The notes beneath the pieces were generated by a model. The model saw only the letters and a program-made list of their open reading frames with translations. It had not been told where the DNA came from and did not search any database. Made by a program: the position numbers and the translations under genes. A stretch of DNA of 64,000 nucleotides from positions 32,178,001 to 32,242,000 of the forward strand of contig OX597825.1 of NCBI GenBank assembly GCA_951406725.2. The letters run 5' to 3'. Source of the DNA: Octopus vulgaris. Lineage: Eukaryota. Below, one piece after another: positions 9,651 through 34,524 of this stretch (position 1 is its first letter; every line of letters begins with the position of its first letter).

Positions 9651-9682
9651 GAAGGTCGAAAAGGAACACACAAGTTGATATG

Positions 9683-10042
9683 TATAAGGTAAAAATGTCA
9701 AGGTAGAAAATGCTAAAATAATTTTTTTATAAAAAACATTTTAGTACCGGTTTCAGTCATTGAGACTTTTTCAACTCTAAGTATGGAAAACAATTAAATT
9801 TTGGAAAAATTAAATGTAAAGTGTTTCAAAAGAATATTTTCATAGTATTCAAATACTAGGAAAATGCCCCTTGTATTTGAATAATATGCAGATATCTTTT
9901 TTAAAAAACTTTGCATTTAATTTTTCCAAAATTTGTCTTCCATATTTGAAGAGTTGAAAAAGTCTCAATGACTGAAACCGGTACTAAAATATTTTTTATG
10001 ATAAAATTATTTCAGCGTTTTCTACCTTAACTTTTTCTTATA
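9683..10042. mobile_element. 360-bp fold-back element between TA/CA microsatellites, with a hammerhead-like motif in each arm
   Basis: Whole element is an imperfect palindrome; TTGAAAA-AGTC-TCAAT-GACT-GAAA-CCGG-TA at 9954-9983. Confidence 0.8.
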
Positions 10043-10119
<77 letters not shown>

Positions 10120-12608
10120 TGAAGTGAAGATAATGTGATATTTAATGAGATATTACATTATTAGATTCTATGATAACAGAATCTGTGAAAAGCAAACTAT
10201 TTTTGTTTTATGCTGGATAATATCACTTTTTAAATAAAGTATAAAACATGATATGAAATGAAAATTAAAAACTAGTTTAAACACAAGGACAGTAAATCTT
10301 GTTGAAAAAAAATATCACAAAAATGGACCCATGATATTAATCATAGCCCATAGCCTATGAAATAAACTAGATAAAATGGTTAGTTAAAACTATTCATCAA
10401 GCAATTATTTTCATCTTTTTCAACTGAGAAAAAAAATGCAAGAATAAAATACATGGCAAAATTTTAATTCAAATAATAGAGAACAATACAACCTTTCATT
10501 TTCCTTTGAACAATATCACTCAAAAATCTATCTGTGAGATGGTAGCATTATGTTCTTCTTCATCATCATCCTAATCACCATCATGATCAGCATCATCATC
10601 ATTATCATTATCATCCCCATGCTAGCATGGAGAACGGACCTTAAACGATGATGATGATGATGATGATGATCATTTAACATTTGTCCACCATGCTGGCACG
10701 GGTTGTATGGTTTGACAGGAAGTGATATGCTGGAGGACTGTGCTGAATTCCACTGTCTACTTTTGCATGGTTTTTATGGTTGGATGCCATTCCCAGAACC
10801 AACCTAAGTGGCACCAGCACAGGCAAAGTCTGTTTTGGTAGAGTTTTTTACGACTAGATGTCCTTTCTGAAATCAATCACTTTACAGATCGGACTGGGTG
10901 CTTTTTACATGGTACCCAACATTTTCCAACAACCTGGTAGGGTATCATAGGACAGTTGTGGACTTTGTTTTGCAATCTAGATGCTTTGGGTTCAGTTTCA
11001 TTGTTTAACTCCTTCAGTAAGTTTCTTTTACTTTTTATCTTTGATTAACCAACATCTTGTGTGTGAAATTTGATAGAATGCCCTTTGTATGCATATTTTG
11101 TTCATTCATTCATTTAACATCCATTTTTCTAAATAACCATGAAAGTTATTAAGGAAGGATTTTACAACTGGAGGCTTTTTCTGTCACCAATCCTAAACTC
11201 AGAAATATTAAATTTTTAAATGTTTCAAAGTGACATGAGCGGTGGTGGAGTGATAGAGTGGTTGTATACTGTCAACTTAACGTGACAGTCCCGTATGGGA
11301 ATTACACCACTGCTGTTTAGCCCTAGGAAGCATCGAACGCTTCCTGTCGGCTTTGACACATTTTCTGTGTCCTTATATTTGTGAAGGGGAGGCAAGCACC
11401 CCTACCAGCCAAGATTCACACCTGAGGACATGCATGTTTCTGGGTTAAGGCCCAGAAACATGCAAATCCTAAACTGTTTTTCAAGAAAAGGATTTCTTTC
11501 TTTAACTGGTCTTTGAAAGCACGAAGCAACCAGCCATAACGTCAACATCATCTCCATTTTACTTAATTGGGGAAAAGTATTTAATATCATTCATGGGTGC
11601 GTAATTAAGAAGTTTGCTTCCCAACCATGTGGTCTTGGGTTCAGCCCCACTGTGCAGCACCTTGGGCAAGTGTCTTTTGCTATTGTTCCAGATATGGATT
11701 TGGTAGATGGAAACTAAAAGATGACTGTTGTGTCTATGTGTGTATGTGTGTGTTTCTCCTGTCTCTGTTCCTCCCTCTCTCTCTCTCTTCTGTCGCTGTA
11801 TATTGATAAAGGCGGTAAATATCAATGAAAGATGTAAACATTGGCAAAAATGCAGATGCTGTTTGTATGAAGGCCTCTGAGTTATAGATGCTTCCTTATC
11901 ATTCTTGCCACCAGAAATGTAATGAATCAGGAATTGGCTTGTTGGAAGCCTGTATTGTCTCCAAATTGCAATATGAAATGAGTAAACTTCTTTTATTTTT
12001 CTTTAACCCATCCGATCTGAAAGATATTATTATCCTCTTCCTTAGAAGGAATCTATCATTATTTCCACCAGACCAAAACCAAGAAACCATCATACTGATT
12101 CCCTTTAAGTTACAGGCCAATCTCTTATCAGTCAAACTACTTATGTAAAATACTTTTGAATAAATGATTAATGATGGACTGGTCTGGTTTATTGAATAAA
12201 ATATTATTCTCACTGATATTTAAGAGTCAGTGAAGAACCATCAATCATCTGATATACATAAGAGATGTGTTTATTGCCAAAGATGCTGCAGCTGTATTCT
12301 TCAGTTTTGAAGAAAAAAGTACGATACAACCTAAAAATATGAAATCCTAAAAGTTCAGAGACAATATGTCCCTTATATTAAAATTTCCAAGAGATTTTAT
12401 TGTACAGTTAGGTCCAAACTGATATACTGTAGTTCCCAGCATACAAGTCAAATTTTTCAGACCCAAATTTACAGGCAAAAATGGTAAGTTGATTTACACA
12501 CAAAGATGACTTTGGAGGATTTAAAATTCCATGTGAAATGCAGCAGGATTTGGGAAGCTAATGACAATGTTTGAATGTTTACATTACATACCATGTCATC
12601 TTGTATGC

Positions 12609-13115
12609 TTACTACTTGTACTTGTGGCAACATTCACCCTAGGTGGGTTGAGTCAGCTTCTTCTACCACCCTCGAGGCATCTAGAACCATGGCAGCCCAC
12701 GCATGATGGTCCTGCGCCAGTTCACTGGAGATAGCGAGCCAGTCACGGTTCCATCGGCGCAGGCCGATGTTGCCATTGTATTCGCTATTGAGAATTCATG
12801 GGAGAAGTTTCGTGGGAATATGTGGATTTCACAAGTGGTCCTCAACAATCCCGCATGTAGAGACATCCTATTTGCCGCAGATTGTCCGCAGACGCAGGGA
12901 CAGAATGGCTGAGGAGCCGCCAGTTGCTGAAACAGACACTCTGAGGATTTTCACCAGAGCCCCGTCTGCCGGGTTGTGGCCCTAATACCACTCGGTGTCA
13001 GACCAATCCACCTTGGGTGGCCCTACCAGGAACCAAAGTTCCCGACGGCATAGCTCTGACACTACCCGTTGCCAGTGTCCACACCACGGTGAGGAGGGGA
13101 TGGACTTTGGGGATG
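12609..13115 (-). mobile_element. Bipartite non-autonomous RTE derivative (5' UTR fused to ORF end and tail)
   Basis: 12-bp TSD CATCTTGTATGC at 12597-12608 and 13116-13127; minus strand ends RRWNRDWLAISSELAQDHHAWAAMVLDASRVVEEADSTHLG* followed by a CAAGTACAAGTA tail. Confidence 0.8.
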
Positions 13116-14089
13116 CATCTTGTATGCCAGAAAATATGGTAATTATTTCCAGCAGGAGAAAAGAGTTCTTCATTGTTGGATATTACCTGCTACCAGATTC
13201 AACAGAACAGTATTTCTGTCACTGTGGCACCTGAATTTTGTTACTAATCTTTTTCCACTTGTCTTGGTTTCAGGTTTTCTTTATGAATCTAAATGTTCTT
13301 ATTCCTGTCCATATCTGCACATCTTTCAAACAATCTCTCTCGCTTTACTCATCTCTTTCTCTTGTTTTTCCTGGCAGGATTATATTTGTGTCACTCAGTC
13401 ATTCTAATAACGTGACCAAAACACTGTATTTTTATTCATCTTATTGCTTTATTTCAAACACAGTGCCTATAATTTTGGGAGAGGGGTCGAGTCAATTCCG
13501 TTGATCCTAATGCTTAACTGCTACTTAATCCATCAACACTAAAAGAATGAAAGGAAAAGTTGACCTTGGTAGAATTTGAAGGGATAGAAATAATAAAGTG
13601 ACATTATCAAAGCTGATATTTGATTTGAAATGTGGAAGGAAAAAATATGGTTTGAAAGGGAGCTCCAGTAGGATCCATACAGTAGAAGAAAGATTGGAAA
13701 GGGCCTGTGAAAATATAACACATTGGGAGTAACAGGAGGAATAATAAGGAATGAGTTATGAGTAAGTGGGGGCTGGTTTGGTTAAGAGGTTTGTTTTGCA
13801 ATTATGTGGCTCTGAATTCAATTCCACTGTAGACCACCTTGAACAGAATCTGGTTGATGGTACATCTGGCCATCTTCTGCCTTATGGAAGCACTGAGCTC
13901 TTCATAATGTAGAGTTATATAATAAGAGTTTTATATTCAAGCTGATTTCTATATTACAGGGAAGTGAATTTATATGGAAGTCAGAAAGAAAATACATTCT
14001 GTTCAATGGAAAGATGGAACTCCACATTTCAGTAGGGTTTTCATGAATGCAATTCTTTTATAGCATGAGGAATGTGCATTGATACACAC

Positions 14090-14121
<32 letters not shown>

Positions 14122-14189
14122 GTTTGTGTGTGTGTTTGATGGTGTGTGTGTGTGAGTTCACTTCCTGATCCCAGAAATGCAGAAATGTT

Positions 14190-14556
14190 TGCACGCTGGG
14201 CGAAATACTTAGCGGTATTTCATGTATCTTTATGTTCTGAGTTCAAATTCCACCGAGATTGACTTTGACTTTCATCGTTTTGGGGTTGATAAATTAAGTA
14301 CCAGTTGCATACTGGGGTTGATCAAATCGACTGGCTCCACTCCCTTAAAATTCCAGGCCTTGTGCCTAGATTAGAAAAGGATATAGATATAGGCATAGGC
14401 ATGGCTTTGTTGTAAAAATATTTGCTTTCCAACTACATGGATCCGGGTTCAGTCTTACAGTGTGGCACCTTGAGCGAGTGTCTTCTACTATACTCTAAAT
14501 CTGATCAAAAACTTTGTGAGTGGATTTGGTTGATGGAAACTGAAAGAAGTTTGTGC

Positions 14557-14612
<56 letters not shown>

Positions 14613-14655
14613 GCGCACCTGCACATACAGATATAAATATATATGTATCTATATA

Positions 14656-14697
<42 letters not shown>

Positions 14698-14835
14698 GAT
14701 ATATATATATATATGTATGTATGTGTTTGTGTTTGTTGCATCCCCCTGCCATTGCTTGAAAACTGGTGTTGGTTTGTTTGACTAAAACCTTCAAGGTAGT
14801 GCCCCAGCATAGCCTGAACTGAAACTAGTAAAAGA
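14190..14835 (+). mobile_element. Truncated SINE A followed by SINE B
   Basis: Homology to both families. Confidence 0.75.
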
Positions 14836-16050
14836 TGCATGTATATATGTGAAACTTCAGCTAACTGAGTAGAGTCACTGTGCTCAAGTAGGTTGTGATA
14901 TGGTATGTGATAAAAAAAAAAAAAAAAAGAATTGGCATATAAAAAAAAAATTCTTAATGGTTTGAAATTTACCACTTAGAGACAGAAATAAAAAACAAAA
15001 ACCTGACAATTTCAGGTAATTCTGAAAGAAGAACGAAGATAATTTCCAAAAAATTAAGAATTAAATTTACAGAAAATTAAATTTTCATGCTTAGAGGTGC
15101 AAAAATATCATTTTCGCTTGTATGATAAGCCTCGAATTTCAAATTTCTTTCTGTTCTGCTATAGTTCTTATCTGTTCTCTTCATGCTAATTATTTTAGCC
15201 TTCTCTGAGTTCAGTTTTCCCGCAAATATATTGTGGCTTACAGATCTATTATTGGTTAGTAAATATGTTAATTTTTTAAAAAATTGCTTTTTCATGTCAT
15301 TCGTTTATTTTAAGCTTTTATTTATTTTTTTGTTTTTCTCTGAATTGAAGTTCTTTGATCGCGTAAAAGTAAATAGTATCAATTCAACTTTAGCTTTCAT
15401 TATACAATCAGATGAAAACTGTTACACTGAAGGCAGTTATAAAAATCTAATTACTGTTTATATCCTTGTGATTTATAACACATGCTTCTCTTTGATAGCT
15501 TTGCCCATATTAAACGGACAGGAATTCTATTGTTGTTGGTGTTTCTTTGTGGTTTTTAGAGACATAGCATGTTAAGTTGTAATGAATGAAAAGATTGAGA
15601 GCGGCAGTTAGATAATGGACTGGCATCTGAGAAGAATTAATGGAGCAGTAGTTCTTCCTCTCACAGTTCTAGTTATGGTAATGCCAGTCAAATAAGGAAC
15701 AAATCAAAGATCACAGAGATATGTCTGTAAATGTTTGTAACCATTTACTTTCATAATCTGATATTGTACCTGCAATTTACTGCTAATATTTTCCACTGAA
15801 GTCAACTCAACAACAATTGATATGGCGTATTCTCCCTGAATTGTCATTTTTACTACGTAGCACACTTGCTAGTCAAAATCAATGGATTCCTTAGTTGCTA
15901 GGAAGCAATCAGCGCTTTCTGTCTCTTGGTAATATTTCAATGAGACAATTTCCACCAGAAACTGTACGGTGATGTTGTAGTTGTGGCTTAGGCTCAACAA
16001 CAACATCAATTCTACTCATGTGAGCAGGGTGAAATAGGTATTCTCTTTCT

Positions 16051-16247
16051 CTCTTTTACTTGTTTCAGTCATTTGACTGTGGCCATGCTGGAGCACCGCC
16101 TTTAATCGAGCAACTCGACCCCGGGACTTATTCTTTTGTAAGCCCAGTACTTATTCTATCGGTCTCTTTTGCTGAACCACTAAGTAACGGGGACATAAAC
16201 ACACCAGCATCGGTTGTCAAGCAATGCTAGGGGGACAAACACACACA

Positions 16248-16279
<32 letters not shown>

Positions 16280-16444
16280 CGACGGGCTTCTTTCAGTTTC
16301 CGTCTACCAAATCCACTCACAAGGCTTTGGTCGGCCCGAGGCTAAAGTAGAAGACTCTTGCCCAAGGTGCCACGCAGTGGGACTGAACCCGGAACCATGT
16401 GGCTGGTAAACAAGCTACTTACCACACAGCCACTCCTGCGCCTA
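16051..16444 (-). mobile_element. SINE family B, full length
   Basis: Homology; CpGs retained, suggesting a young copy. Confidence 0.9.
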
Positions 16445-16506
16445 TTAAGCTGGTGCAGTTATTGAATGTAGAGCTCCACATTGAGTGTTTCGTTGCACTC
16501 AATGTA

Positions 16507-16543
<37 letters not shown>

Positions 16544-17120
16544 TATTGCCTTTGCACAGCTTCTAATGCCCGAGATGTACTACAGTGTCAGCTGTTCATT
16601 ACCAGTGAACCAAGGTAACACCTCTTATTTTTCGAGCACCTTCCGGAGTATTCGATCGGTTCCAAGCAATGCTGTTTTCTGCAAGTGCTCCACCCTTACT
16701 GCTGCTCCTATTTGTTCCATGTACTTCTCGAGATTTTTGCTTACTATTCCCAGAGCTCCAACAATTATTGGTACTACTGCTACCGTTTTCATCAACCACA
16801 ACTGCTTAACTCCCCAAGCTAACCTGTCATATCTCTCGACTTTTCTTTCTTCCTTATCGCATACCTTGTTGTCAGCTGGGCATACTATATCTGTGATCCA
16901 GCATAGTTTGTTTTCCTTTTCAATTAAGATTATGTCCAGCTTCCTATTCTCAATCTCATGGTCACATTGAATCATAAAATCCCATAGGATCTTTGCATTT
17001 CTATTTTTGACAATGCCTTCAGGTTTGTGGTCATACCAATTTTTGGCTCTTTCAAGTCCATACTTGTTGCAAAGTGTCCAATGGACAACCCTAGCTCTAT
17101 TGTCATGGCGTCTCTTACTT
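16507..17120 (-). mobile_element. 5'-truncated R4/Dong-like non-LTR retrotransposon (restriction-like endonuclease domain) with (TAA)n tail
   Basis: Open frame 16625-17128 reads RRHDN..ILWDFMIQCDHEIENRKLDIILIEK..IIVGALG..LQKTALLGT..ILRKVL; both ends lie in TAA repeats. Confidence 0.85.
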
Positions 17121-17138
17121 ATTATCATTATGGGGAAT

Positions 17139-17357
17139 AAGATGGTGAGCTAGCAGAATTGTTAGCATGCTGGACAAAATGGTTAGTGGTATTCTGCCCC
17201 GTCATTACATTCTGAGTTCAAATTCTGCTGAGGTTGACTTTACCTCTTGTCCTTTTGGGGTCGATAAATTAAGTACAAATGAAACACTGGGGTTGATGTA
17301 ATCGACTATCACCCTCCCAACTAAATTTCAGGCCTTGTGTCTAGAATAGAAAGGATA
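17139..17357 (+). mobile_element. SINE family A variant
   Basis: Homology. Confidence 0.8.
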
Positions 17358-17740
17358 ATTATACTGGGGAATTACATGAAGAGTACACATGACTGAGGGA
17401 TACTCAGCCACTTACTAATTCAGTGAGTAGGGAGTTCAGTTGATTAAACATCTGGACATTTTCATATTGGTGGGAACATTTTACACACACACATGCATGC
17501 ACGTGTACACACACACGCACGCCATTTATCAAAGCTGAAAAAAATCTTCGCAAACTGCTACTCTGCTGTTGAAAATTTTAAACTCCATTCATGTCTGTTA
17601 TTCTATACTTACACCACTGGTTGTATTTCTGTGGACAGCTTCCTGCTGATTGAAGTTCTGGATTTGGATCCCTAGTGTGGAATTCAGGAAATGCAAACTG
17701 TTACAAATGTGCATGTACCATAACCAAATATAGCTTTAAA

Positions 17741-19363
17741 TATTGGATTGGGGAATAATTCATGAACATTTTTTTCCAAATTTATTTTAAACAAAAAAAA
17801 AAAAAACTACAACAAATTAATAATATACTCTCTGTTGTTGATTACAACTGCCTCCATCTTATTCCCCATAATAATAATAAGTAAGAGACGCCATGACAAT
17901 AGAGCTAGGGTTGTCCATTCAATATCATTCAATATCATTCAATAAGTTTTTCAATTCCTTGGTAATAGAAATCTTCCTGTTTTGACTCAAGGAATTTGTC
18001 AAGCCAAGCCCTCAATTCCATGTCATTATTGAATGATACACCACACAAAACGTTTGAAAGTAGTCGAAAGAGATGAAAATCTGATGGTGTCAAGTCTGGA
18101 GAGTATGGAGGATGAGGCAGTGCTTCTCATTTGATTTCTTGAATCATGGCTTTGGTCACATTGGCGAAGTGAGGATGGGTATTGTCGTGTTACAGAAGAA
18201 TGTCATTTTGCCTATTCTGTCTTTTTTGCTGAATTGCTTCATTAAGCTGGTGCAGTTATTGAATGTAGAGCTCCACATTGAGTGTTTGGTTGCACTCAAG
18301 CAGTTTGTGATGAATCATTCCTTCCTAGCCCCACTATACACGCAACAAGGACTTTTGAGGATGAAGGTCTTGTTTTGATCACAGAATCGCTTGTTTGTCA
18401 GGGCTGAGCCATTCATTTTGCTGCTTCACATTGATGTGAAGGCACCATTTTTCATCGCCAGTAACAATGCAGTAAAGGAAACGCTGTTTGTAACCATATA
18501 TTTAGTGATGTCGAGCAAGTAATCTGGTGGTGATTGTGGGGTGTAGATTTTTCTTGTTTTCACTCCAAGTGTGTGGTACCCAAGTGCCAAGTTTCTTAAC
18601 CTTGCCCATTGAGTGAAGGTGGTTCACCATAGTTTTTTTTATCACAATTCATCTGCTGAAGGTGGCGAGCTGGCAGAAACATTAGCATGCCAGGCGAAAT
18701 GCTTAGCGGTATTTCGTCTGCTGTTGCGTTCTGAGTTTAAATTCCACCGAGGTTGACTTTGCTTTTCATCTTTTTGGGGTCGATAAATTAAGTACCAGTT
18801 ACACACTGGGGTCGATCTAATCGACTTAATCCCTTTGTCTGTCCTTGTTTGTCCCCTCTATGTTTAGCTTCTTGTGGGCAATAAAGAAATAACAATTCAT
18901 CTGCTCTGCCAATTCTCTGGTTGTTTGACTTGAATTTTCGTGAAGAAGTTGATTCAATTGCTTTTCATTGAACTCAATTGGTCAACCAGTATCCATCCTT
19001 GAGGTAAAAATTCCCATTTTTGAAATGTGAAAACCAATGGCAGGTGGTACTTTGAGGCATTGCTCCTTCTCCATATGCAGCACAAATCTCATGAGCAGCT
19101 TTGGTGGGCTTAACACCTCAATTAAATGCAAAAAGCAAATGGTGGCAAAAATGCTCAGTTTTGTCCACTTGACATTCCATTCTAATGATCTGAAAATACA
19201 CAAAAGTCAATAAAATTATAAAATCAAAACACACTATCTTGTAGAGCAAAAAATTCTCTTTTAAATAACATAGAATATTTTGCCAGTGCATTTTATTTCT
19301 GCATGCATTTTTTGCATTTTTAAATTTGAAATAAACACTCACGAATTATTCCTCAACGTAATA
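17741..19363 (-). mobile_element. Mariner-like DNA transposon with a decayed transposase
   Basis: TA-bounded imperfect TIRs (TATTGGATTGGGGAATAATTCATGA / TCACGAATTATTCCTCAACGTAATA); motifs WVPHTL (~18570) and HPPYSPDLTPSDFHL (~18070-18113); N-terminus MECQVDKTEHFCHHLLFAFN. Confidence 0.9.
18658..18891 (+). mobile_element. SINE family A inserted in the mariner
   Basis: 14-bp TSD ACAATTCATCTGCT at 18644-18657 and 18892-18905. Confidence 0.92.
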
Positions 19364-21003
19364 GATAACTGGTTAGGGATTGACAAAGGTTTTACTGAGT
19401 GATGCTAAGACTCTGGATGCATAGAATTAAGCAACAAGTTCTACATACTCTTTGGGATCTTCAGTAATCTGACCTGTGTCAGGATTGCAAAAAGGGTAGA
19501 CTGGAGAGTGAGGCCCCTTTTCAATGCACATATTTTCCACAACGCTTTACTATTCATGTTGGTTAGAAAGCATTGTAGACATAGAAGCTCTGCCTTTTTA
19601 GTTACCTGCTTGAAATGATTGGATGGTTTGATTTATTTTCTATTATCATCTGTTCTTCATAATTTGAATTATTGTTCAGTGTGTGTGTGTATGTGTGTGT
19701 GCTCAGGTTAGCCCTATCTAACTGAGAAATGCATCCATGGAAACTTGGTCCAGTGAGAGACAGTGATGCTTTCACATCAAACAAGAATAAATAAGAAGAA
19801 TATATTATCTACACTTGGTTTTGGTATTCATATATCCAAATTGCACATGGTAGCTTATTATGTAGAAACACACATACACACACAAATACAGCAGTTATAC
19901 ACAAATATAATCCTATTTTCTCCTAAACCAGACTGGTTCTCTTGTGCTAATGGCTACCATATATAATATCTACCATATTATCTGTATTTAAAAGGTTAAA
20001 AATAAGAATAAAAAGAAGCAAAACAACAAATCTGGGTCAGTGTATCTCTAAGTGATGTAATTTTTGATGTTATTACCTGCTGTGGTTGGGAAAAGGTTAA
20101 TTGAATGGAAATTTTTGCATCACTGGAACAGCTGAAACATTTTTCATCATTTGAAACAGGCAAACTGTTATTCATTTTATTTGTTACGTAAACTTAGTTA
20201 TGGATTTATATTCAGGCCAAGCAAGGTGTGCAGTCTTTGATTAAAAGCTTGATTGAGCAGATCTATATTCAAAAGTGTTCCAGCTGTGACTATTCCATCT
20301 TTTTACTATGTTCTGTGAAACCAGCACTACCTTATATCTCCCAATTTGTTTTCTTTTTTAAGGTGGCAGGATGTAATTTGAAGATTTGGCTTGTATTTCT
20401 AGCAGATCTGGTGACCATATAGAAGTTCTCTTTTAATATAGCACAAGCTTGATAAAAAAAAAGGGAACAATACATTTGAGTATGTAATACTAGGAGGGGA
20501 GTTGATTAGGGGTGGGGCCGGTGGGGTCACCTGACCTGCTAGAAATAGCAGCCGAATCATCTGCAACACACTGTCTTCAAAAACAAAACAAAACAAAAAA
20601 AATCATCGAGAACAATACACAAGATAATGTAATCCTAAGTACTTTTAAATATCAATGATGTATAAGTTATTATATGTGGCAGACATTAGCTTAAGTGTTT
20701 AGAAGAAAATAGAATTATATTTGTGTATAGCCTCTGTACTTGCATAAATATATACATAAATCACCACCAGAAGCTAACCCCTCCACCACCACCACGTTTG
20801 TATATTTGTGTGAGTAGACAATATGCTGCAATATGCTATATACAATGTGCTGTCTATTTGGATATATAAATAGCAAAATAAAGCTAAGATGATTTGTTAT
20901 TTCTTGTAGTTTGAAGGAAAAGCTTTACTGCCTGTCATTGCTTCAAGATTTCCTGGTTGACATTTTTGAATTAGATAGTGCTAATCAGATTAAGTATAAT
21001 ATA

Positions 21004-21500
21004 TACAGGGTGGGTCAGTTTTTTTGGGTTGTTTGTATGAATTTTGAAAAAGATGCATAGCTCATCCAAGAAAATCTGTATTTGAAAACAAATTGGTAGA
21101 AATAATCTTGAGAATCCTTTTATCCAACCTATTCAATGACTCTATGGTTAGCATCAAATGCTGCTTCATTCAGTATAAGGTTGGAAGTGTTTACATGCTC
21201 AAATCAGATGATCTTCATCAATGTTGGACATAGTGCTGGTTATGTTGGCCTCAAGAAGTTGTATGGTGTTATGAGGGCATTGATGCACCTCTCTCTCAAC
21301 TATGCCCCATATGTAATTGTCCAGTGGATTGAGGTCTGGTGAGCTAGGAGGCCTTGTATCTGGGAAAGCATGATTATGGAGATTGGCATGTATCCATACT
21401 TGGGTTGTCTTAGCTTTATGAGACAGTGCAAAGTCTCATTGGAAGATGTATGGTCTTCCATTGTATTCTCTGACTATACAGGTCCTCACTACTTTCTCCA
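21004..21500 (-). mobile_element. Tc1/maT-like transposon 3' fragment
   Basis: Terminus TA-CAGGGTG; minus strand encodes PPSSPDLNPLDNYIWG (~21305-21352). Confidence 0.7.
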
Positions 21501-22096
21501 GCATCTCTGTGTTGACAACAGTAGTGACTCTCAAGCCATGTGAAAAAACTGAACAGGTATGACATCTCCTTCATTGCTGATGACTTTAAAAAGGTCCTCA
21601 GGTTGAGTGAGTTTAAAAAGGTCCCCAGGTTGAGTGACATTATTGCCTACTCAGCCCTCTAAAAAACTTGCTTGACCCAGAAACTTTTTTAAACTTCAGG
21701 AAAGAGGTATTCAGTCAATGCCCCCATCTAAAATATTTCCTACTTCAGACTTGGAATTCTCCATTTGTTGAATATTCCCACCATAGCTCCGAATATTGCC
21801 ATAGCTGGAGCCAATGCAAAGGGGGATAATCCCATCTCGCTAACTCCATCCCATACCATGGACAATTATTTTTTGTTTACAAAACCAACTGACTGTTACA
21901 TATTTCTTCCTCTAGTTCTAGGGATGTTATGTTCCTTCAGTCATTTGTGTCTGCGAAGTCATCTATATAGATAAGCACTTTATACTTGTGAAACCAATGG
22001 TTACTCTGTGAGTGGCTATAACTTTTAACTTTGTAAAAGATACATTACTGTTCTAATGTTTTAGAGTGTGCTTCTTTTTCAGATATATGAACTACT

Positions 22097-22145
<49 letters not shown>

Positions 22146-22979
22146 TATACACACCTATGCAATGGGTTTCTGAATCATTTCTGTTTACCAAGTTCTTTCA
22201 CAAGGCATTGGTTGGCCCACGGATATAGCAGAAGATACTTTCCCAAGGTGCTGCAGTGGGATTGAATCTGAAACCATGTCACTGGGAAGCAAATTTCTTA
22301 ACCACACAACAACTGGTGCATCTGACAAAAATGCTTTACATTTGATTGAGTTATCTCCCTTTGCTTCAGAGTTTGCACAATGGGTTCTTGGATTGTTTTG
22401 TACCACATTCTTACAATCCAAAAGTTCACTTCTCAAATACATAGTACAGTGTTCCATCTCATAGCATGGCCCCCTTCAGCAAGTGTTGGGAGCAAAACTG
22501 AGTAGATGGAAAGTGTGGGGACACAAAGTCCTGCAGGGACATGACATTGTATCTCTATCTTGGAAAGGTTATCTTGGATTCTTTCCATTCTCTCTTTGCT
22601 GTATATTTGTGCTTCACATAAATGATATAAAACCTGTTGTTGTTGCTGTTGTTTAGCTCCCCCACTCCACCACACCTACCCAAGTTTGTTCCTAATTTAA
22701 AAGATCTATGATCATTGCATTTCAAGTGTAACCATTCCATCAATTTTCTTCTTTTTATATTTTTCAGGAATAGTTAAATCCTGGCTACATTATCCAAAAG
22801 TGTAAATCAAGAAAAATTCGGCTGTTATTTTTAGCAGATTCGACAATCACTTGAAAACTCTTTTCATTGGTTTGTGAAACTCTTTCTGATAATTAGGTAT
22901 GATCATCTTTTTATAGATTTCTTCCTTATTTATGAACACAATGTCAATTACAGAGAGATTATTATTTTTATGAAACAGT

Positions 22980-23386
22980 ACTCGAAATCGATCAACATCA
23001 ATGGAAATTGTAGCTGTGATACCAGTGCCGGTGGCACGTAAGTGAACCATCTGAACGTGGCCGTTGGCAGCGCCGCCCCGACGAGCCTCCGTGCCAGTGG
23101 AACGTAAAAAGTACCATCCGATCGTGGCCATTGCCAGCCTCGCCTGGCCCCCGTGCCGGTGGCACGTAAAAAACACCATCCGACCGTGGCTGTTTGCCAG
23201 CCTCGTCTGGCACCTGTGCCGGTGGCATGTAAAAAGCATCTACTATATTCACGGAGTGGTTGGTGTTAGGAAGGGCATCCAGCTGTAAAAACATTACCAG
23301 ATCAGACTGGGCCTGGTGCAGCCTTCTGGCTTCCCAGACCCCAGTCGAAACATCCAACCCATGCTAGCATGGAAAGAGGACGCTAA

Positions 23387-23416
<30 letters not shown>
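22980..23416 (+). mobile_element. RTE LINE 3' UTR with internal ~60-bp tandem repeats and (GAT)n tail
   Basis: Repeated GTGCCGGTGGCACGTAAAAA..ACCATC units; same 3' end as 46298-46885. Confidence 0.8.
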
Positions 23417-23418
<2 letters not shown>

Positions 23419-23435
23419 TACTCAAATTTCATTTA

Positions 23436-23930: not shown

Positions 23931-23948
23931 TATATCCAAGTAGCAGAA

Positions 23949-24570: not shown

Positions 24571-24893
24571 TTGCAGCGTGGAAGGTGTTTGTAAGCCATT
24601 TAAGAAACACACAAAAACCGTTACATTCACTTCAACATTTAAATTTAATTTGCCAAAATATTTTCGTCGCTTTGAGACCGCGACCTGTTCACTGACAAAA
24701 ATATCGTGCTAACAGGTCGCGGTCTCAAAGCGATGAAAATATTTTGACAAATTAAATTTAAATGTTGAAGTGAATCTAACGGTTTTTGTGTGTTTCTTAA
24801 ATGGCTTATAAACACCTTCAACGCTGCAACTGTTTTCGTTCCAGCACACGATCTCAGATCAAGTCACTTGCTATGCAAGTACATCTCTGTAAC
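24571..24893. mobile_element. Fold-back element in (TA)n with 119-bp arms and a hammerhead-like motif
   Basis: 24571-24689 pairs with 24711-24829; 21-bp loop; 64-bp one-sided extension. Confidence 0.85.
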
Positions 24894-24993
24894 TATATAT
24901 ATATTTATATATATATATATATATGTATATTGGTAAAAACAGTAAGATAACAAAAGAAAGAAAGAGACCTCAATATTATGTAAATAGAGGAAA

Positions 24994-25387
24994 TCTTTAT
25001 ATATAAAAGTGAGGTTGTGTGTCTGTCTCCTACGATTTACATTCCTAACTACTCCCACATTTTGCGGTGCAGTTTAACCAAAACCGGGTATCTTATAGTC
25101 GTGATTCATATCGAGACCGTCTGGGTATTAGCGCGCGTCTACGATGAGTCTACGATTTTAAAAAAATTTACCATCAATTTTTCCCATTTTTAATCCATTT
25201 TTGACATATATAAGGGAAGTAACTCTCTAAAATTTATTATTAAATCTCAGAACGTAAAAAGCTACAGTAACACCCCTCCCCCTTTGTGGTTAGCCATATT
25301 GAGATGGCTATTATACTTTACATCTCTAAAAATGCTTATATAATTATTTCCCTTACAAACCCGAGCAACGCCGGGCGATACTGCTAG
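24994..25387 (+). mobile_element. Non-autonomous Helitron
   Basis: 5' TC, 3' hairpin CCCGAGCAACGCCGGG followed by CTAG, inserted between A and T, no TSD. Confidence 0.85.
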
Positions 25388-25469
25388 TAATTGATATAAT
25401 TCTTAATGGAATCTAGGAATGACAGGGAATTTGTCTGGTTGCATATCCGTGGACTGCTCCCAGCAGATT

Positions 25470-25640
25470 GATATTCTGTGCAATGTTATAATCACATTCA
25501 TCATTTGTTCAAGTACCCCAAACTTTGCCCGGACCTTCCATAATGCATCACAATATACCATGACAAAAGCCTTTGTGGGATCAACAAATACTACATGGAG
25601 ATCCTTTTCCTGCTTGTGAGGCTTTTTCTGCAGCTGAGAT
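25470..25640 (-). mobile_element. RTE LINE reverse-transcriptase fragment
   Basis: QLQKK..DLHVVFVDPTKAF..ALWKVRAKFGV resembles the RT motif FVDLxKAFD. Confidence 0.7.
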
Positions 25641-27210: not shown

Positions 27211-27252
<42 letters not shown>

Positions 27253-27721
27253 GGTTACTGTCTCCTTGCCGCCACTATTTGTGATTGTTGTAAATGAATG
27301 TCACTACCATGCAGGTGATGTCCTTTGTTTCCAATCTTTAGTGAAAGCATGGAGAAAATATTACCTTATTTGGAAACAGATGAGAATTGGCATCTAGCTG
27401 TAGAAAATTCATCTGAACAAATTCTATCCAACTCATGCAAGCATGGAAAAGTGGATGTTAATTGATGATGATAATGACGACAATGATGATGACGATGGCG
27501 AGTAGGAGGAGGAGAACATTGCTGTTTCTTGAAATGATGAAGATGATGATGATGGGTTGAAGTGAAAGCATTGCATTGTATGAATGGCTCAGCTTCCTGG
27601 ATTTGCATATCTGCCCGAGAAGGCCTAAATGGATTTATTTAGGGAAGAGCTGGATTAAGGTACCCTTGTCTTTGATGAGGAGGCTGGAAGGAGGCATGGC
27701 TTTATCTTCATTTGATTCCTG

Positions 27722-27748
27722 CCATTAACTTTCAGGGATCCTATATAC

Positions 27749-27804
<56 letters not shown>

Positions 27805-28055
27805 TTATATATATATATATATATTACACACAGACACACACACATGCACACACTTACATGTTTTGTGTTTGTGTGCATACCATGTAGCATTTCATACTGA
27901 TATTTATTTGCGATCCTCATACATACACACATACATGCATGCACAGGCATAAGTATACATATACATACATAAAAGATGCATACTTACATAGATATAAATA
28001 TACATCCATCCATACATACACTCATGTATACTTATTAAGACAAAAGTATATACAC

Positions 28056-28116
<61 letters not shown>

Positions 28117-28244
28117 CACATTTAGATATATATATATATATATTGATATATGTATATATGTGTATATATATATATATATGTATATACATATGCACACTTA
28201 TATATATATATATATATACACATATATGTATTTAAATATATACA

Positions 28245-28282
<38 letters not shown>

Positions 28283-28440
28283 CATACACATAAGCACAAG
28301 GTATATACATGCATACATACATACATACATACATATATACATAAATACATACATTCATATTTACATGTATACATATGTACCAGACAAAAGTATATACTTA
28401 TACATGCACGCACACACACACACACACACATATACATTGA
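27722..28440. repeat. Large TA/CA-rich low-complexity array
   Basis: Dinucleotide repeats. Confidence 0.9.
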
Positions 28441-28914
28441 CAAAAGTACACACGCATACTTACAATGATGTATGCATGTATCATATACTGTTTTATGTCT
28501 CATGTTTGTGAAATATAGTAGTCATGTAAGCTATATTTTAGTATTAATGCTCATTTCATTGTTACCTATGCTACAAAATATAAAGAAATCTTCACCCCCA
28601 ACCCCAACCCCACCCTCACAGCTACCCCCCCCTGCCACCTCCACCCCAAACCCAACCTTCTGTCTCCGCTACCACCACTCCTATCTCCGCTACCGGCGGC
28701 GGCATCAGAATGGTATGTAGTTTTTATTAAGACTATAATATTGAAGATGTAACAAGTGTGAAGTGATTGAAATAGTGTGAAAGGTATAAGGAAGGAGTGA
28801 CTCGTATGTCTGGAATATAGAATTGAAACAACTGTAATAATGTCTTTTAAAAGCACCAAAAATAATTCCATTAGATGTAAAGCTTTCAGCAGCATCATTG
28901 CTGTCACGACCACT

Positions 28915-30500
28915 GCAACTACTACTGCTGCTGCTGCTGTTGCTGTTGCTGCTGCTGTTTCTAATTTCCACTGTCACTGCTGCAGTTGCTACTGCTGCTG
29001 CTGCTGCTGCCACGACCACCACTACTTTTGCTGTTTCAATCACCACTGCTGTTTACCATGGCTATCACTGCCGCTGCCACCACCACCACCACCACCGCCA
29101 CCACCACCACTGCCGCCGCCACCACCACCATCACCACCACCACTCCCCCATCTCATTCTTTCAACACCACCACTGTACCACCTCTGTCATCACCATCACC
29201 ACCACTGTACCACTTCTGTCATCACCACCACCACTGTACCACCTCTGTCATCACCACCACCACCCTGTGGCACCACGACCACCGGCACCACAACCACCCT
29301 GTGGCACCACAACCACCCTGTGGCACCACGACCACCCTGTGGCACCATGATCACCGGCACCACAACCACCCTGTGGCACCACAACCACCCTGTGGCACCA
29401 CGACCACCCTGTGGCACCACGACCACCCTGTGGCACCACGACCACCCTGTGGCACCACCACCACCCTGTGGCACCACCACCACCACTTTTACAGTTTCAG
29501 CCATCACCACCACCATCACCATCACATCCACCACCTTCACCATCCTCATTACCCCTTATACCTGCAACTTTCAGACTATCACCACCAGAGATCACTCTCT
29601 CCATCCATGCCTATCAACTGGAACCTCTAAATAGCTCCCCACCCAACCTTATCAACATTGTATACTATTTCTACTACTACTGCCAAAACGCCAGTACCAG
29701 GCTTTCTACCACCAAGTAGCCTAACCATGCCATCTATACCACTCTACAACAACCAACGCTAAGATAATGAGGTAGCCTCTACATGGTCTGTCGGTCTGTT
29801 AGAATTAGCAACCAAATCTCCCTCCAATCACACCTTCAAGTCTTAATAGAGGACTCATTGGATAATGTTGTCCTACACTTAGGAGGAACAGATGGGAAGG
29901 TCATGGCTGGGATATCTTTGTTCATTGGTGTGTTTGATCAGGATTGACTGCAGTGGGGGTGGGGTGGTAAACGATACCAACAACAACTTCAACAAGCACT
30001 TTCACCCATTGACCTCTTTCACCGCCATCACCATCTCTGCCGTTGCCACCTCCACCACCACCATCCTCATCGCTACCAAACCATTACTGCTACCACCACT
30101 GTCTCACCCCCCCCCAGACACCACCAACACCACCACCGCCATCATGGAATATTACAACTGATAAATACTACTATATCACCACTGCCACCACCACCACCAC
30201 CACACCACCACCACCACCACCAACAACTTTTACCCCTACCTGAAACCACCAGCTCTACATTTACTATCCCACCACCATCAACATCATCATCTCCAGCAAC
30301 AACAACAGCAGTAGCAGCAGCACCACCACCACCATCACCTCCACCTCCACCATTGCTTTAACACACAGCTCCACTATCTCCACCACCACCATCACTGTCA
30401 CTAACACTGCTATCACCATTTTCACTATCCCAGTAGCAGCAACACTACCTCCACCACCACAGCCTCCACCTCCACCATTACCACCACCACCACCGCCATG
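28915..30500. repeat. CTG/CAC trinucleotide-rich region containing a 19-bp minisatellite (29262-29485)
   Basis: Unit ACCCTGTGGCACCACGACC. Confidence 0.9.
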
Positions 30501-31177
30501 GTTGTGCTTTGTTTTTACTGAGATTCTTAAATCTGGATTAAATCTTCATCTTCTATCACATGTCAAATCTTCTCAACATTTCTGCACAGAAACTTCTCTT
30601 TTCCAATTATCTTTAAATATTGCAAAGCTGTTATTCTTGTTCTTGTTGTTGTTATTTTAGTTGTTATTACTTGGTGGTGGAGGTGGTGGTGGCACTGTTG
30701 CTGTTGTTGATTAGACTTAGCATGACCCTGATCGAGTAAAACTATGACCAAAACCGATCCAACCTCCATTATTTTTGGATGTACGGAACACATTATCTAA
30801 TGTGTTCTTAGCTGTTATTTCTAAAACCTTTATTGACCACATACTGGCTTTCTCATCGGTTCATTGTTGACGTTCATTATTCTTGTTGTTATTGTTTTAA
30901 CCCTAGGTCATCCTTGATAAATCTGGCCTATTATTAAAAACTTTCCAGCTATGACCACCCATCCTGTCTTTTCATATGATCAAGACTGCATTGGCCAATG
31001 AATTTCTCCATTTTTGTTTTGCAACTTTGGAATATGATTTGAGGGAGGCTTGGCTTCTGTTTCTTGTAGATCAAGTAGCTACATAGCTACGCTGGTTGGC
31101 ATTTGTATTGCACTCTTGTTGATGGTATTTTTTAGAAGTTGATTTTAATATTATTTTCTTTATTTTCTTGTATTGCG

Positions 31178-31650
31178 TAGTGTAGGAGTGGCTGTGTGGT
31201 AAGTAACTTGCTTACCAACCACATGGTTCTGGGTTCAGTCCCACTGTGTGGCACCTTGGGCAAGTGGCACCTTGGGAAAGTGGCACCTTGGGCAAGTGGC
31301 ACCTTGGGCAAGTGTCTTCTACTATAGCCTCGGGCTGACCAAAGCCTCGCGAGTGGATTTGGTAGATGGAAACTGAAAGAAGCCCGTTGTATATATGTGT
31401 GTGTGTGTGTATATATATATATATGTATATGTGTCTGTGTGTGTATGTTTGTGCCCCCCAACATCGCTTGACAACCAATGCTGGTGTGTTTACATCCCCA
31501 TAACTTAGCGGTTTGGCAAAAAGAGACCAATAGAATAAGTACTAGGCTTACAAAGAATAAGTCCTGGGGTCGATTTGCTCAACTAAAAGGCGGTGTTCCA
31601 GCATGGCCTCAGTCAAATGACTAAAGCAAGTAAAAGAGTAAAAGAGTAGA
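31178..31650 (+). mobile_element. SINE family B with an internal 4x16-bp duplication
   Basis: GTGGCACCTTGGGCAA x4 at 31248-31311. Confidence 0.9.
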
Positions 31651-32170
31651 TTGCTGCTGCTGCTTTTTCTGTTCTTGTTGTTGTTGTAATTGTTGCCGTT
31701 GTTTTAGCAGTTGCTGCTGCACCTGTCATTATTTATTTTTTTTGCCACTTAAACTGTTGTTGTTGTTGTTGTTGATGTTGATGTGCATTTTTCTGTTGCT
31801 GTTTATTGATTGTTGTTGATTTTGCTGCTGTAGAAAACAACAACAACAACAACAACAGCAGCAGGAACAACAACAACAACAACAGCAGCAGCAGCTGCAA
31901 TACCATGTGCAGCTGTTCAAATGTGAATCAGTGAAATTCTTGATGGTTCATGTTTGAAAGGTGCTGGCAGTGAGCTAAATCTCTGCTAGAGAGTAGGTTA
32001 CTGTTTCAGCTTGTAATCCTGTTTTGAAGGAAAAGATTACGTTGTTTTTATTGTGATTTTTCCATTTATATTGACAGATAAGACAGATTCATTACATTTT
32101 TCCCTCACCTCTCACCACCGACCACATCACAACCACCTTACACACATGCATACACTTCCTCACGTCTTCC

Positions 32171-32202
<32 letters not shown>

Positions 32203-33096
32203 TTTATGTATGCATATTGGATTTAGTGCCCTTGTTAAATATTGAACTCTATTTTTCTGTTGTTAAATTTAGGTTAAGTAAAAGCATTAACTTCAGATTT
32301 GTGTTTCGTAGTTATTGCTCTGTGTTATTGCTGTGTGTTATTGCTCTGTGTTATTGCTGTGTGTTATTGCTGGTCGAGTCAAAGAAATGGCACTTCATTA
32401 GTCACCACTGGCACCATGTCTTGCCTGTTTTCCAAGACAATAAACTGCTACTGGCTTTGGCCTTAGTCTACCCAACCATGAATAGTAGGAACTACAGTGA
32501 ATTGTGAAGTGCAAGCAAGCACAAGATACTGTACAAATGACAAAGCATTGAATCCAATTCTGCCTATAGACCTAAAGATGGCATTTAGGTAAACCGTTCC
32601 AGCACTTACCAAAATGTCTGAAGATGCTCAATCATTCCTACCTGCTCTTACACTGGCAATGAGACCAGGTTCTAATTTAGACCCATGGTTGCAGAGCTGG
32701 TCTAGATTTTCAAGGCGTTTTTGGCAACTGAGGGTATAAGACTCATTCCTGAACAGGATGCCAGTGAACTGGCATCCTGGCTTAACCGCCCCCTCCCCCC
32801 ACCTGTTGCTTCTACTCGTTTTTTCCAGCTGAGTGAACTGAAGCAACGTGGAATGAAGTATCATGCCAAAGGACACAGTATGCTGCCTGGTCAAGACTCA
32901 AACCCATGACCTAGTGTTCTTCAGCCTACACCTTGACCAGTTGGCCACTTGCCATCCCGATTTGGACTAGAGGTAGCTGATGCAATATTTTGTCTGGTAA
33001 TCATTGTGTAGAGTGATGCAACAGAATAATGTGTTTGATGCACATATTGATGGCTGTTGATGTAAGGTTTTGGCTAGTAATCAACATGTAGAATGA

Positions 33097-33398
33097 GTTC
33101 TCATTCTTAAGGTATTTTTCGATATCATTATTATTAATATTATTACTATTCAGGTCACTGCCTGGAATTGAACTCAGAATTTTGGTGTTAGTAGCCCACG
33201 CTCTTAACCACTATGCCATATGCACATGGGCAACAAACAAGATGAGGACATATATCTGTCAAATGTAAATAATGTAAATAATGTACATAATTCCTCATCT
33301 CTTAAATATAGAACTGGAGGTTTCTTTTAGTTTCTGTCTACCAGATCCACTCACAAGCCATTGATCAGCCCGGGGTTACAATATAAGACGCTCATACA
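33097..33398 (-). repeat. Inverted local duplicate of 34109-34411
   Basis: Reverse complement that includes the host-SINE/insert junction. Confidence 0.9.
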
Positions 33399-34189
33399 GG
33401 GGCATTCATAACTACAGGCACAGCTGTTGATGTAAGGTTTCTGCTTTGTGATCAGTGTGTAGAATGATATGACAGAATATGTTTGGCGCAATGATGCACC
33501 ACAACTGCCTGTAGATACAGGCTGTTGTTACAAAGTTTCACTTTATAATCTGCATGTTAATCGTAGCGTTGTTTTGGATAAAATATTTATGGGAAGACGA
33601 TATAAGAAATTTAATGGTGTGTGGAAGTGAAATATGGTCAGAGAAAATTAAGTATCTTAATGTGCAATATTACTTACCATATTACAAGAAAAGTTGTATG
33701 TCAGTGAACTTGAGAGCATAATTAAGCAATAGAGATATTGAAATCAACAAAATTAATGAATCATTAATTTTTTTAAAAAGTATATATATATTGTTTTATT
33801 GTTGTTTTTTTTCCACAATTTATTAAGTAATTGTTTTTTTTCTTTTTTGGTAATTAATTTTTCTGTTACCCCCTTGTCACCCTTCCACCATCATCTTTCC
33901 TTTTGATTAACTTTGAGGAAAGAGGGGTGGAGAGAGGAGAGAAACTTTATAGTTTATTGTAAGGAAATGATTTAACCAAACTATTTTCTTGTACAAGTAT
34001 TGTCTGGATGGCATGGCTCTTGGCACAGAGAAGCAGACATGGCTGCGTGGTTAAGAAGTTTTGTTCCCAGCCCTGTGCTTTTAGGTTCAGTCTTACTCAG
34101 TAGCACCTTGTATGAGTGTCTTATATTGTAACCCCGGGCTGATCAATGGCTTGTGAGTGGATCTTGTAGACAGAAACTAAAAGAAACCT

Positions 34190-34524
34190 ACAGTTCTATA
34201 TTTAAGAGATGAGGAATTATGTACATTATTTACATTATTTACATTTGATGGCTATTTGTCCTCATCTTGTTTGTTGCCCATGTGCATATGGCATAGTGGT
34301 TAAGAGCGTGGGCTAACAAACCCCAAGATTCCGAGTTCGATTCCAGGCAGTGACCTGAATAATAATAATATTAATAATAATAACATCGAAAAATACCTTA
34401 AGAATGAGAACCCAGGTTCGAGATTTCCCCAAGACACCTGATGAAGGCTGGAGGGTATATCAGCCGAAGCATTGTGTTAGCAACAAACAAGATGAGGACA
34501 AATATCCGCCAAATGTAAATAATG
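34190..34524 (+). mobile_element. tRNA-headed, hammerhead-bearing retroelement with an inverted terminal segment (Penelope-like, non-autonomous)
   Basis: A box 34289-34299, B box 34333-34344, CTGATGA-A-GGCTG..CAGCC-GAAG at 34438-34469, inverted repeat 34231-34277/34480-34526, 12-bp TSD TAAAAGAAACCT; sits inside a SINE B. Confidence 0.75.
34434..34478 (+). ncRNA. Minimal type I hammerhead ribozyme motif (degenerate copy)
   Basis: Stem I ACAC/GTGT, core CTGATGA, stem II GGCTG/CAGCC; GAAG in place of GAAA. Confidence 0.55.

Follow-up and report, generated by a model that had tools for sequence, protein, structure and literature searches.

Inverted arms and hammerhead-like motifs at the locus

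The window, a stretch of 64,000 nucleotides of Octopus vulgaris DNA, contains three elements with inverted arms, here called E1, E2, and E3, each associated with a hammerhead-like motif:

3445..3772: second copy of E2 at 99% identity, sharing its arm differences, both ends cut short, tail-less; the right arm (3707, plus strand) has an intact motif, the left arm a longer core run
9648..9680, minus strand: one-sided tail of E2, 33 nt, adjoining (TA)n
9681..10044: palindrome of E2, between microsatellites
9743..9776, minus strand: left-arm motif of E2 (U3 at 9774), with no difference from that of the right arm
9952..9985, plus strand: right-arm motif of E2; stem I of 2 bp, U3:A8 core at 9954-9960, stem II of 4 bp opening with A:U, GAAA, 6-nt palindrome, A17 at 9983
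24572..24710, minus strand: tail-less arm of E3, sense strand outward, containing a complete hammerhead-like motif
24649..24699, minus strand: motif of E3; stem I of 7 bp (24699-24693 with 24655-24649), core from G3 at 24692 to A9 at 24686 with C8 at 24687, an extra G, stem II of 5 bp with G10.1:C11.1, GAAA, 6-nt palindrome, U17 (24656) and, directly after it, the predicted cut (24656/24655)
24711..24829, plus strand: tailed arm of E3, 5'-truncated mid-core, without G3-U4-G5, with G10.1.U11.1
24830..24892, plus strand: one-sided tail of E3, 63 nt, (TA)n directly after
33094..33401, minus strand: nearby duplicate in inverted orientation (94%), covering host flank and the 5' part of E1 and stopping short of the motif
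34180..34189, plus strand: left copy of the 10-bp target duplication of E1 (up to 12 bp; right copy at 34527-34536), in a host SINE-like repeat
34190..34228, minus strand: one-sided tail of E1, ~39 nt
34229..34277, minus strand: tailed arm of E1, 49 nt, 94% alike to 34480-34528, beginning immediately 3' of the motif
34285..34356, plus strand: segment in the E1 loop, presumably a tRNA-like head (A box 34289, B box 34335)
34433..34478, plus strand: motif of E1; stem I of 5 bp, C3:G8 core at 34438-34444, extra A, stem II of 5 bp

The heptamers and stems of the original prediction could be located at 34438 (+), 9954 (+), 9774 (-), 3707 (+), and 24692 (-), with nucleotides 3 and 8 complementary in each motif, namely C:G in E1, U:A in E2, and G:C in E3. 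The elements are mutually unrelated, as had been stated: the best pairwise blastn comparisons of E1 with the other two gave E values of 0.59 and 1.9, and the best match between E2 and E3 (E 0.001) extends over 31 AT-rich nucleotides. The invariant U4, G5, A6, and A9 are indeed shared, but this invariance is imposed by how the motifs were selected. Stem I, the one-sided tails, and the start of the right arm of E3 within the core were absent from the original prediction.

The GAA(A) layout proposed for all three elements holds for E2 and E3, in which GAAA is followed by a 6-nt palindromic stem III with the A15.1:U16.1 pair. The window copy of E1 has none of the three: it reads GAAG-CA-UU, with A15.1 replaced by G and the palindrome broken. 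It has an extra nucleotide that conforms to H and a G10.1:C11.1 pair closing stem II. Its core has decayed, so that the description of this copy as ribozyme-bearing is not supported, and the copy is likely dead. E1 occurs as a single independent copy within the window and consists of the 49-nt arms flanking ~200 nt of unique sequence. The tRNA-like head may be a component of E1 or a nested insertion; ARAGORN found no tRNA in it. As for E2, the motif had been described as mirrored on the other arm and as present in the 3445 copy; three of the four arms pass the descriptor, the exception being the left arm of the 3445 copy, with two additional bases within the core run. Stem II of E2 opens with A10.1:U11.1, or alternatively an extra U is needed ahead of G12, and the lowest-energy fold of E2 is not a hammerhead.

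Motif significance and the E3 family

The shared loose layout described earlier occurs eight times in the window versus 4.0 ± 2.0 times in 60 shuffles and is by itself non-significant. With a palindrome of at least 6 nt, the strict test gave four matches from two families in the window, compared with 113 across 3993 shuffled windows; with a palindrome of at least 4 nt and a stem I of at least 5 bp, E3 was the single match, compared with six across the 3993. Stem I comprises 7 bp in E3, 5 bp in E1, and 2 bp in E2, the last being no better than chance; the published range is 2-6 bp, and the closure of the stem I junction is present in all three. Among the 120 loci listed by a degenerate G3:C8 scan in one of 64 parts of the viral contigs, which served solely as a control, one passed with stem II and a 2-nt palindrome and none with a stem I of at least 3 bp. 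Rfam gave no match at the gathering score and, at E 10, no hammerhead family, just hairpin-driven microRNA-type matches far under the cut-off. The folding z-scores were weak, with -1.6 for E3, -0.9 for E1, and 0.0 and +0.6 for E2. Exact strings of E3 and E1 had no match in metagenome contigs, nor had that of E2 in prokaryote genomes.

Aligned with each other, the arms of E2 agree at 159 positions and differ at 18 (about 90% identity), with 41 identical columns across the motif. The motif is unchanged while the arms differ by about 10%; for the 33 nt specified, P is 0.006, whereas the less favourable P for an identical run of 41 columns anywhere in the arms is 0.035.

The family-level data concern E3, E1 and E2 being known from their window copies. 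E3 is a high-copy family with 6,872-23,287 matching contigs per run in four public runs (run X20, with a share of 0.12, was left out); summed contig depth was used solely for ratios and does not represent copy number. In runs guessed to be RNA, which may be DNA, 68-84% of the E3 words are present. Throughout the core region (24682-24700) all alternative letters remain below 3% in all four runs and G3:C8 is fixed, a result of low power because the variation outside the motif predicts fewer than one such site in 13 core nucleotides. What had been called covariation of the 3:8 pair is one state in each family, with no variation within E3. The expectation that a search for CUGANGA would miss such cores is supported for E3, the G3:C8 core being family-wide. 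Outside the motif, seven non-CpG sites are more than 10% variant across ~140 nt by hand count; within it there are two, one in loop II (24726) and one in stem I that forms a U.G wobble (24747). Contig starts at 24746-24752, considered as starts at the cut site, were rejected and are accounted for by the mirrored reference.

The E3 family has discrete 3' ends in all four runs, one tail-less (24829) and two tailed (24887 and 24892). Its junctions are variable, 24684-24710 being joined to many sites within 24736-24864, and in each run 134-256 contigs diverge at 24700 from the sequence of the window copy and share a 15-letter extension there. The junction of the window copy is also found in high-depth contigs, at 0.6-17% of the arm-level depth. 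Many copies extend through the predicted cut site, and one subfamily is copied as an entire hairpin, the tailed strand of which lacks the core. Variable 5' truncation of the second copy was seen for the E3 family alone.

Origin of the elements and fate of the motifs

All three elements have inverted arms with the sense strands outward, and only one of the two arms ends in a tail (33, ~39, and 63 nt). They are inserted into microsatellites, with (TA)n or (CA)n flanks in E3 as in E2, or are bordered by a duplication of 10-12 bp (E1). This architecture matches the published layout of Penelope-like elements (PLEs) and thereby points to PLE insertions. EN-positive PLE insertions comprise a 5'-truncated copy in inverted orientation and, at one side, a tail of 30-40 nt, and show a bias toward microsatellites (PMC3846280, PMC8557442, PMC11167929), with target duplications of 8-10 bp (Arkhipova 2013, PMC3846280). 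E1-E3 resemble these insertions (PMC3846280; Craig 2021, PMC8557442; PMC11167929) in the head-to-head arms, the tail at one end, the microsatellite targets, the duplications, and the discrete 3' ends. The distance from the predicted cut to the arm end is 85 nt in E3, 61 nt in E2, and 53 nt in E1; in the anole PLE the cut site lies 85-92 nt from the start of reverse transcription (Frangieh 2024, PMC11167929). The retro-type, PLE-like origin suggested originally is thus supported by the arms and one-sided tails in three of three elements, the variable junctions and discrete 3' ends of E3, and the 10-bp duplication of E1. Unlike the EN-positive insertions described in those papers, E1-E3 are merely 200-400 nt long without a coding remnant, and the tail of E3 (58-63 nt) exceeds 30-40 nt. 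The shared arm differences of the E2 copies and the fixed-junction part of E3, both reminiscent of DNA elements, also speak against a PLE reading. A Pfam search of 150 of the 213 candidate frames (63 minus-strand frames were left out) found no match to reverse transcriptase (RT) or GIY-YIG; its two matches were both below the cut-off and neither was relevant. The lack of such a match among these frames is expected of stubs.

We consider it probable, at about 0.7, that E1-E3 are short insertions of unrelated PLE families, in which the tail end was copied twice head-to-head, each with a hammerhead-type motif the cutting of which would be slow and partner-dependent. As extrapolated from earlier studies of PLEs, an RT/GIY-YIG protein with its gene at another site would nick AT-rich DNA on both strands, and reverse transcription would begin at two RNA sites, the tail end and a site ~60 nt internal. 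Two such starts would leave one arm with a tail and the other without, the extent of 5' truncation being variable, and the one-sided tail would be the interval between them. The hammerhead-type motif was likely inherited from the pseudo-LTR; in the E3 founder the 3:8 pair would have been swapped, probably under earlier selection for pairing. Cutting would require a single-arm transcript, a palindrome-mediated dimer, and probably the protein of the element. It seems dispensable for insertion, given that many copies span the cut site and that the whole-hairpin subfamily of E3 lacks the core on the tailed strand; hammerhead cutting was likewise unnecessary for PLE insertion in vitro (PMC11167929).

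The same origin is shared by a possible, though less probable, alternative that differs in activity alone: the motifs of E2 and E3 may be catalytically dead, the altered core having been fixed in a non-autonomous founder that did not need cutting. The read-through copies and the core-less tailed strand suit such relics, as does the predicted folding of read-through RNA, in which stem II of whole E2 and whole E3 has a probability of 0.0 and the motif is buried in the hairpin. Moreover, core mutants insert normally in vitro, none of the RNA ends in the anole data falls at the cut site (PMC11167929), and published minimal hammerheads are poor cutters. However, two complementary transversions together with intact stems I and II and an intact palindrome are hard to obtain by drift, and the stem I variant preserves pairing. 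Single-arm RNA is predicted to form stem II with a probability of 0.83-0.84, and an engineered C3G/G8C double swap partly rescued cutting of a PLE hammerhead in vitro (Frangieh 2024, PMC11167929), so that G3:C8 can be partly active. Somewhat unlikely is the far-reaching reading in which E3 represents a naturally occurring, catalytically active G3:C8 hammerhead, fixed across thousands of 200-nt non-autonomous, PLE-driven copies in an animal lineage, with a self-regenerating hairpin form copied whole from core-less RNA.

Two further explanations concern the arms themselves. They could stem from an antisense template that primed itself by folding back, a mechanism put forward for rotifer PLEs (Arkhipova 2013, PMC3846280), instead of two primings on sense RNA, with the fixed hairpins perhaps being passengers of a larger mobile unit or local duplicates. 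The second E2 copy, ~6 kb away from the first with both ends cut and no tail, and the duplicate of E1 carrying host flank would agree with duplication, but internal RT starts matching the tail ends were demonstrated in vitro (PMC11167929) and the E2 arms differ by ~10% all the way to the centre, which makes this route improbable. Least probable is a transposase-driven origin of E2 and E3 as DNA elements of the foldback or MITE type, with the motifs being chance or leftover sequences in inverted arms: the long arms, the TA flanks, the 99% identical E2 copies with identical arm differences, and the high-depth window junction of E3 are outweighed by the one-sided tail with one tail-less and two tailed ends, the majority of contigs departing from that junction at variable sites, the 10-bp duplication of E1, the rarity of an E3-level motif in shuffles (6 in 3993), and the family-wide test, made for E3, in which symmetric termini and a uniform interior were not found.

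Relation to known hammerheads and retroelements

Under the preferred PLE origin, E1 and E2 by themselves are unremarkable representatives of a kind already known. Cervera and De la Pena 2014 (PMC4209133) describe minimal type I hammerheads of metazoan PLEs with the same order of stem I, core, extra nucleotide, stem II, GAAA, palindrome, UH, and stem I, with U-rich 5' and AU-rich 3' flanks, and with paired motifs, one on each strand, separated by 100-700 bp, all as observed here. U3:A8 is also published there: family 4 of S. mansoni has the UUGAAAAA core, identical to that of E2. Our families are unrelated to one another and of this widespread kind, hence the term radiation, used originally, is not supported. 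They depart from the published PLE hammerheads in the extra nucleotide of E3, which is G where the consensus has H, in the opening A:U of stem II in E2, in the loss of A15.1 in E1, and in the lack of a linked reading frame among the 150 of 213 frames. G3:C8, the state of E3, occurs in none of the 56 representatives of Fig. S3 in that paper. Engineered and natural core variants retain a Watson-Crick 3:8 pair, as does E3 (PMC11167929; Perreault 2011, PMC3088659), and in the available part of Perreault 2011 natural covariation is to U3:A8 only.

Among small repeats, non-LTR retrozymes (bioRxiv 10.64898/2026.07.22.740005) are likewise non-coding, PLE-linked type I hammerhead repeats. Retrozymes form head-to-tail tandem arrays, whereas E1-E3 are dispersed inverted pairs and do not belong to them. 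The SINE-like repeats of schistosomes with type I hammerheads (PMC6765202) are small, non-coding, and PLE-linked too, and are comparable to E1, the motif of which is preceded by a putative tRNA-like promoter head. The available portion of Kojima 2018 contains nothing on hairpin-plus-tail repeats, and copying as a pre-formed whole hairpin, as in the E3 subfamily and perhaps E2, is absent from the corresponding portions of the PLE descriptions compared (PMC3846280, PMC8557442, PMC11167929).

We found no published case of a natural G3:C8 hammerhead, although Lunse et al. 2017, the Terminon paper, or the supplements of Perreault 2011 may list one. Judged by its sequence, E3 would be a natural high-copy case in an animal, and an unusual variant if it cuts. 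Fixation of compensatory changes at both positions throughout a high-copy family would show natural selection on the 3:8 pair, and so probably on catalysis, and would mean that searches for CUGANGA and UUGANAA undercount hammerheads. Hammerheads are nearly universal in PLEs, yet insertion in vitro proceeds without their cutting; were E3 active, it would offer a natural side-by-side test of their role in transposition and a sign that many palindromes regarded as "MITEs" in such genomes are retroelements. The fixed-hairpin subfamily of E3 suggests a route by which PLE stubs could become palindromic MITE-like repeats.

Hairpin elements and their hammerhead-like motifs

Three hairpin-shaped repeats with a hammerhead-like motif lie in AT-rich, microsatellite-rich DNA containing many SINE-like repeats:

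34190–34526, E1
9648–10044, E2; second copy at 3445–3772
24572–24892, E3; motif on the minus strand at 24649–24699

The original prediction placed all three motifs correctly, and pairwise comparison agreed that the elements are unrelated in sequence. Its loose layout, allowing any Watson-Crick pair between core nucleotides 3 and 8, gave 8 matches in the window, where 60 block shuffles averaged 4.0 ± 2.0, and by itself therefore proves little. When GAAA and a palindromic stem III were demanded, 4 matches remained, namely three E2 arms and E3. Among 3993 shuffles, a palindrome of at least 6 nt occurred 113 times, and one of at least 4 nt with a stem I of at least 5 occurred 6 times. Among 120 viral control loci selected with a degenerate G3:C8 pattern, a single one combined stem II with a 2-nt palindrome, and a stem I of at least 3 was absent from all of them. 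Folding z-scores were weak in all four windows tested, and an Rfam search matched no hammerhead family.

The E3 family and its G3:C8 core

The main finding is E3, a family present in high copy number whose G3:C8 core is fixed and which has an offshoot multiplied as a whole hairpin. The motif combines a 6-nt palindrome, a 5-bp stem II, and a 7-bp stem I, the last overlooked in the original prediction. In assembled contigs of public runs, at least half of 25 sampled E3 words were present in 19 of the 24 listed runs, under four organism labels, among them runs 37 and 41 million letters in size. We aligned four runs to 24645–24898 (23,287, 10,833, 13,350, and 6,872 contigs; these family data cover E3 only). 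No alternative letter reached 3% at 24682–24700 in any of the four, and G3 and C8 are thus the family state in each. G12 changed in 3–4%, at a consensus CpG. Two non-CpG variants exceeded 10% within the motif, one in loop II and the other a U·G wobble in stem I. This pattern fits selection, with little power, because the roughly 7 non-CpG sites above 10% in 140 nt outside the motif (hand count) predict fewer than one among 13 core positions.

Loose contig ends mark discrete 3′ ends at 24829 (without the tail), 24887, and 24892, with AT-rich sequence beyond. At 24700, 134–256 contigs per run depart from the window copy with a common extension of about 15 letters and then diverge, and the joints among those listed lead from 24684–24710 to many sites within 24736–24864, which together indicate variable 5′ truncation. 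Core depth is about 25–70% of arm depth (mirrored bins summed by hand), so many copies extend across the predicted cut site and derive from uncut RNA templates.

High-depth contigs also span the window's own E3 junction, and in three runs other letters make up <3% there. The junction depth relative to 24681 was 0.15–0.17, 0.07–0.08, 0.03–0.04, and 0.006 in the four runs, which the window alleles rank roughly alike (24820: 0.19, 0.09, 0.04, 0.04; 24830: 0.36, 0.13, 0.04, 0.07). In run X1, locus-length contigs have a depth of ~30–55 vs. ~400,000 summed at the junction, which is therefore far from single-copy; a fixed junction in high copy implies that a pre-formed hairpin with its tail multiplied as a whole. 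The tailed strand of this subfamily lacks G3-U4-G5. If hairpin RNA were primed at both start sites, the two cDNAs could anneal via their arms and rebuild the hairpin; alternatively, the fixed hairpin may have spread as a passenger within a larger unit. The variable 5′ truncation seen in the contig joints and the departures at 24700 does not fit a fixed MITE.

The share of the fixed-junction subfamily varies ~25-fold among runs X1 to X12, which bear different organism labels, suggesting a recent, lineage-specific burst.

Predicted cutting and published hammerheads

The predicted probability of the 10.1:11.1 pair is 0.0 in whole E2 and E3, so a read-through transcript is predicted to bury the motif; it is 0.83–0.84 in a single arm and 0.92–0.99 in E1. 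Cutting would require single-arm RNA and dimer formation, and the predicted palindrome energy of E3 (AU) is very weak at −0.2 kcal/mol vs. −8.3 for E2. For an anole Penelope-like element (PLE), the C3G/G8C double mutant restores cutting in part, protein is required for cutting, and core mutants insert normally (Frangieh 2024, PMC11167929). We rate the chance that the putative E3 hammerhead cuts measurably in vitro as slightly better than even.

The accessible part of Cervera and De la Pena 2014 (PMC4209133) describes PLE hammerheads with the same layout, opposite-strand dual motifs, and a U3:A8 core; the exact E2 core occurs there in one schistosome family, whereas the G3:C8 of E3 occurs in none of its 56 representatives. 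U3:A8 is the sole natural 3:8 covariation in the sections available of Perreault 2011 (PMC3088659), and a literature search of incomplete coverage turned up no published natural G3:C8.

E1 and E2 are unremarkable examples of this already known element type, E1 being decayed. Stems I and II and a C3:G8 core are present in E1, followed by GAAG-CA-UU, which would be two transitions from the common published form; the window copy fails the hammerhead core. The E1 loop holds a tRNA-like head carrying an A box and a B box, in which ARAGORN found no tRNA. At 33094–33401, 700 nt off, the 5′ part of E1 and its host flank recur as an inverted duplicate, 94% alike, produced by a local rearrangement later than the insertion. 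E2 has a stem I of just 2 bp and a stem II opening with A:U. Its motif lies inside a 41-column block identical between the arms, which elsewhere differ at 18 of 177 aligned columns (P = 0.006 for the 33 nt specified, 0.035 for an identical run of that length anywhere in the arms). As in the fixed E3 subfamily, both E2 copies carry the same arm differences, although local duplication could also account for the second. That copy (3445–3772) is shortened at both ends and interrupts another repeat, with neither tail nor evident duplication; it may have arisen by templated capture from the other copy, which lies 6 kb away.

Insertion architecture and neighboring repeats

In all three elements the sense strand of the motif faces outward and one arm alone carries a tail (33 nt in E2, ~39 nt in E1, 63 nt in E3). 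This arm begins mid-core in E3 and just past the motif in E1. E2 and E3 are inserted in microsatellites, and E1, flanked by a 10-bp duplication, splits a copy of D19, a dominant SINE-like family (ten or more copies within the 64 kb, at 8406–8479 and nine other places). PLE insertions are described, in the portions available, as an inverted 5′-truncated copy with a 30–40 nt one-end tail and microsatellite bias (Craig 2021, PMC8557442) and with 8–10 bp duplications (Arkhipova 2013, PMC3846280); in vitro, the tail corresponds to the interval separating two reverse-transcription starts (Frangieh 2024, PMC11167929). Scanning 150 of 213 candidate frames turned up no RT or GIY-YIG remnant. In the available part of a repeat annotation of octopus from 2026, 31 PLE families are given as recently active; these could drive the elements provided that the host is octopus. 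The proposed PLE origin is likely right; the covarying 3:8 core and the radiation of ribozyme-bearing retroelements were overstated.

A fourth hairpin with a tail (46049–46275; 175-nt palindrome, arms 92% alike, ~50-nt right tail, then (TA)n) has no hammerhead-like match and probably represents a PLE stub whose truncation falls 3′ of any motif. Three other local palindromes (8619–8826, 40692–40756, and 50012–50134; arms 81%, 88%, and 72% alike) gave no descriptor matches. A frame of 174 aa at 16625–17149 (−), without a Pfam match, looks like the endonuclease region from the C terminus of an R4/Dong-type LINE; a 66-nt inverted repeat of 98% identity (17080–17145 and 17854–17919) overlaps it. 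Read on its opposite strand, 18085–18378 resembles what we take to be a decayed mariner/Tc1 transposase fragment.
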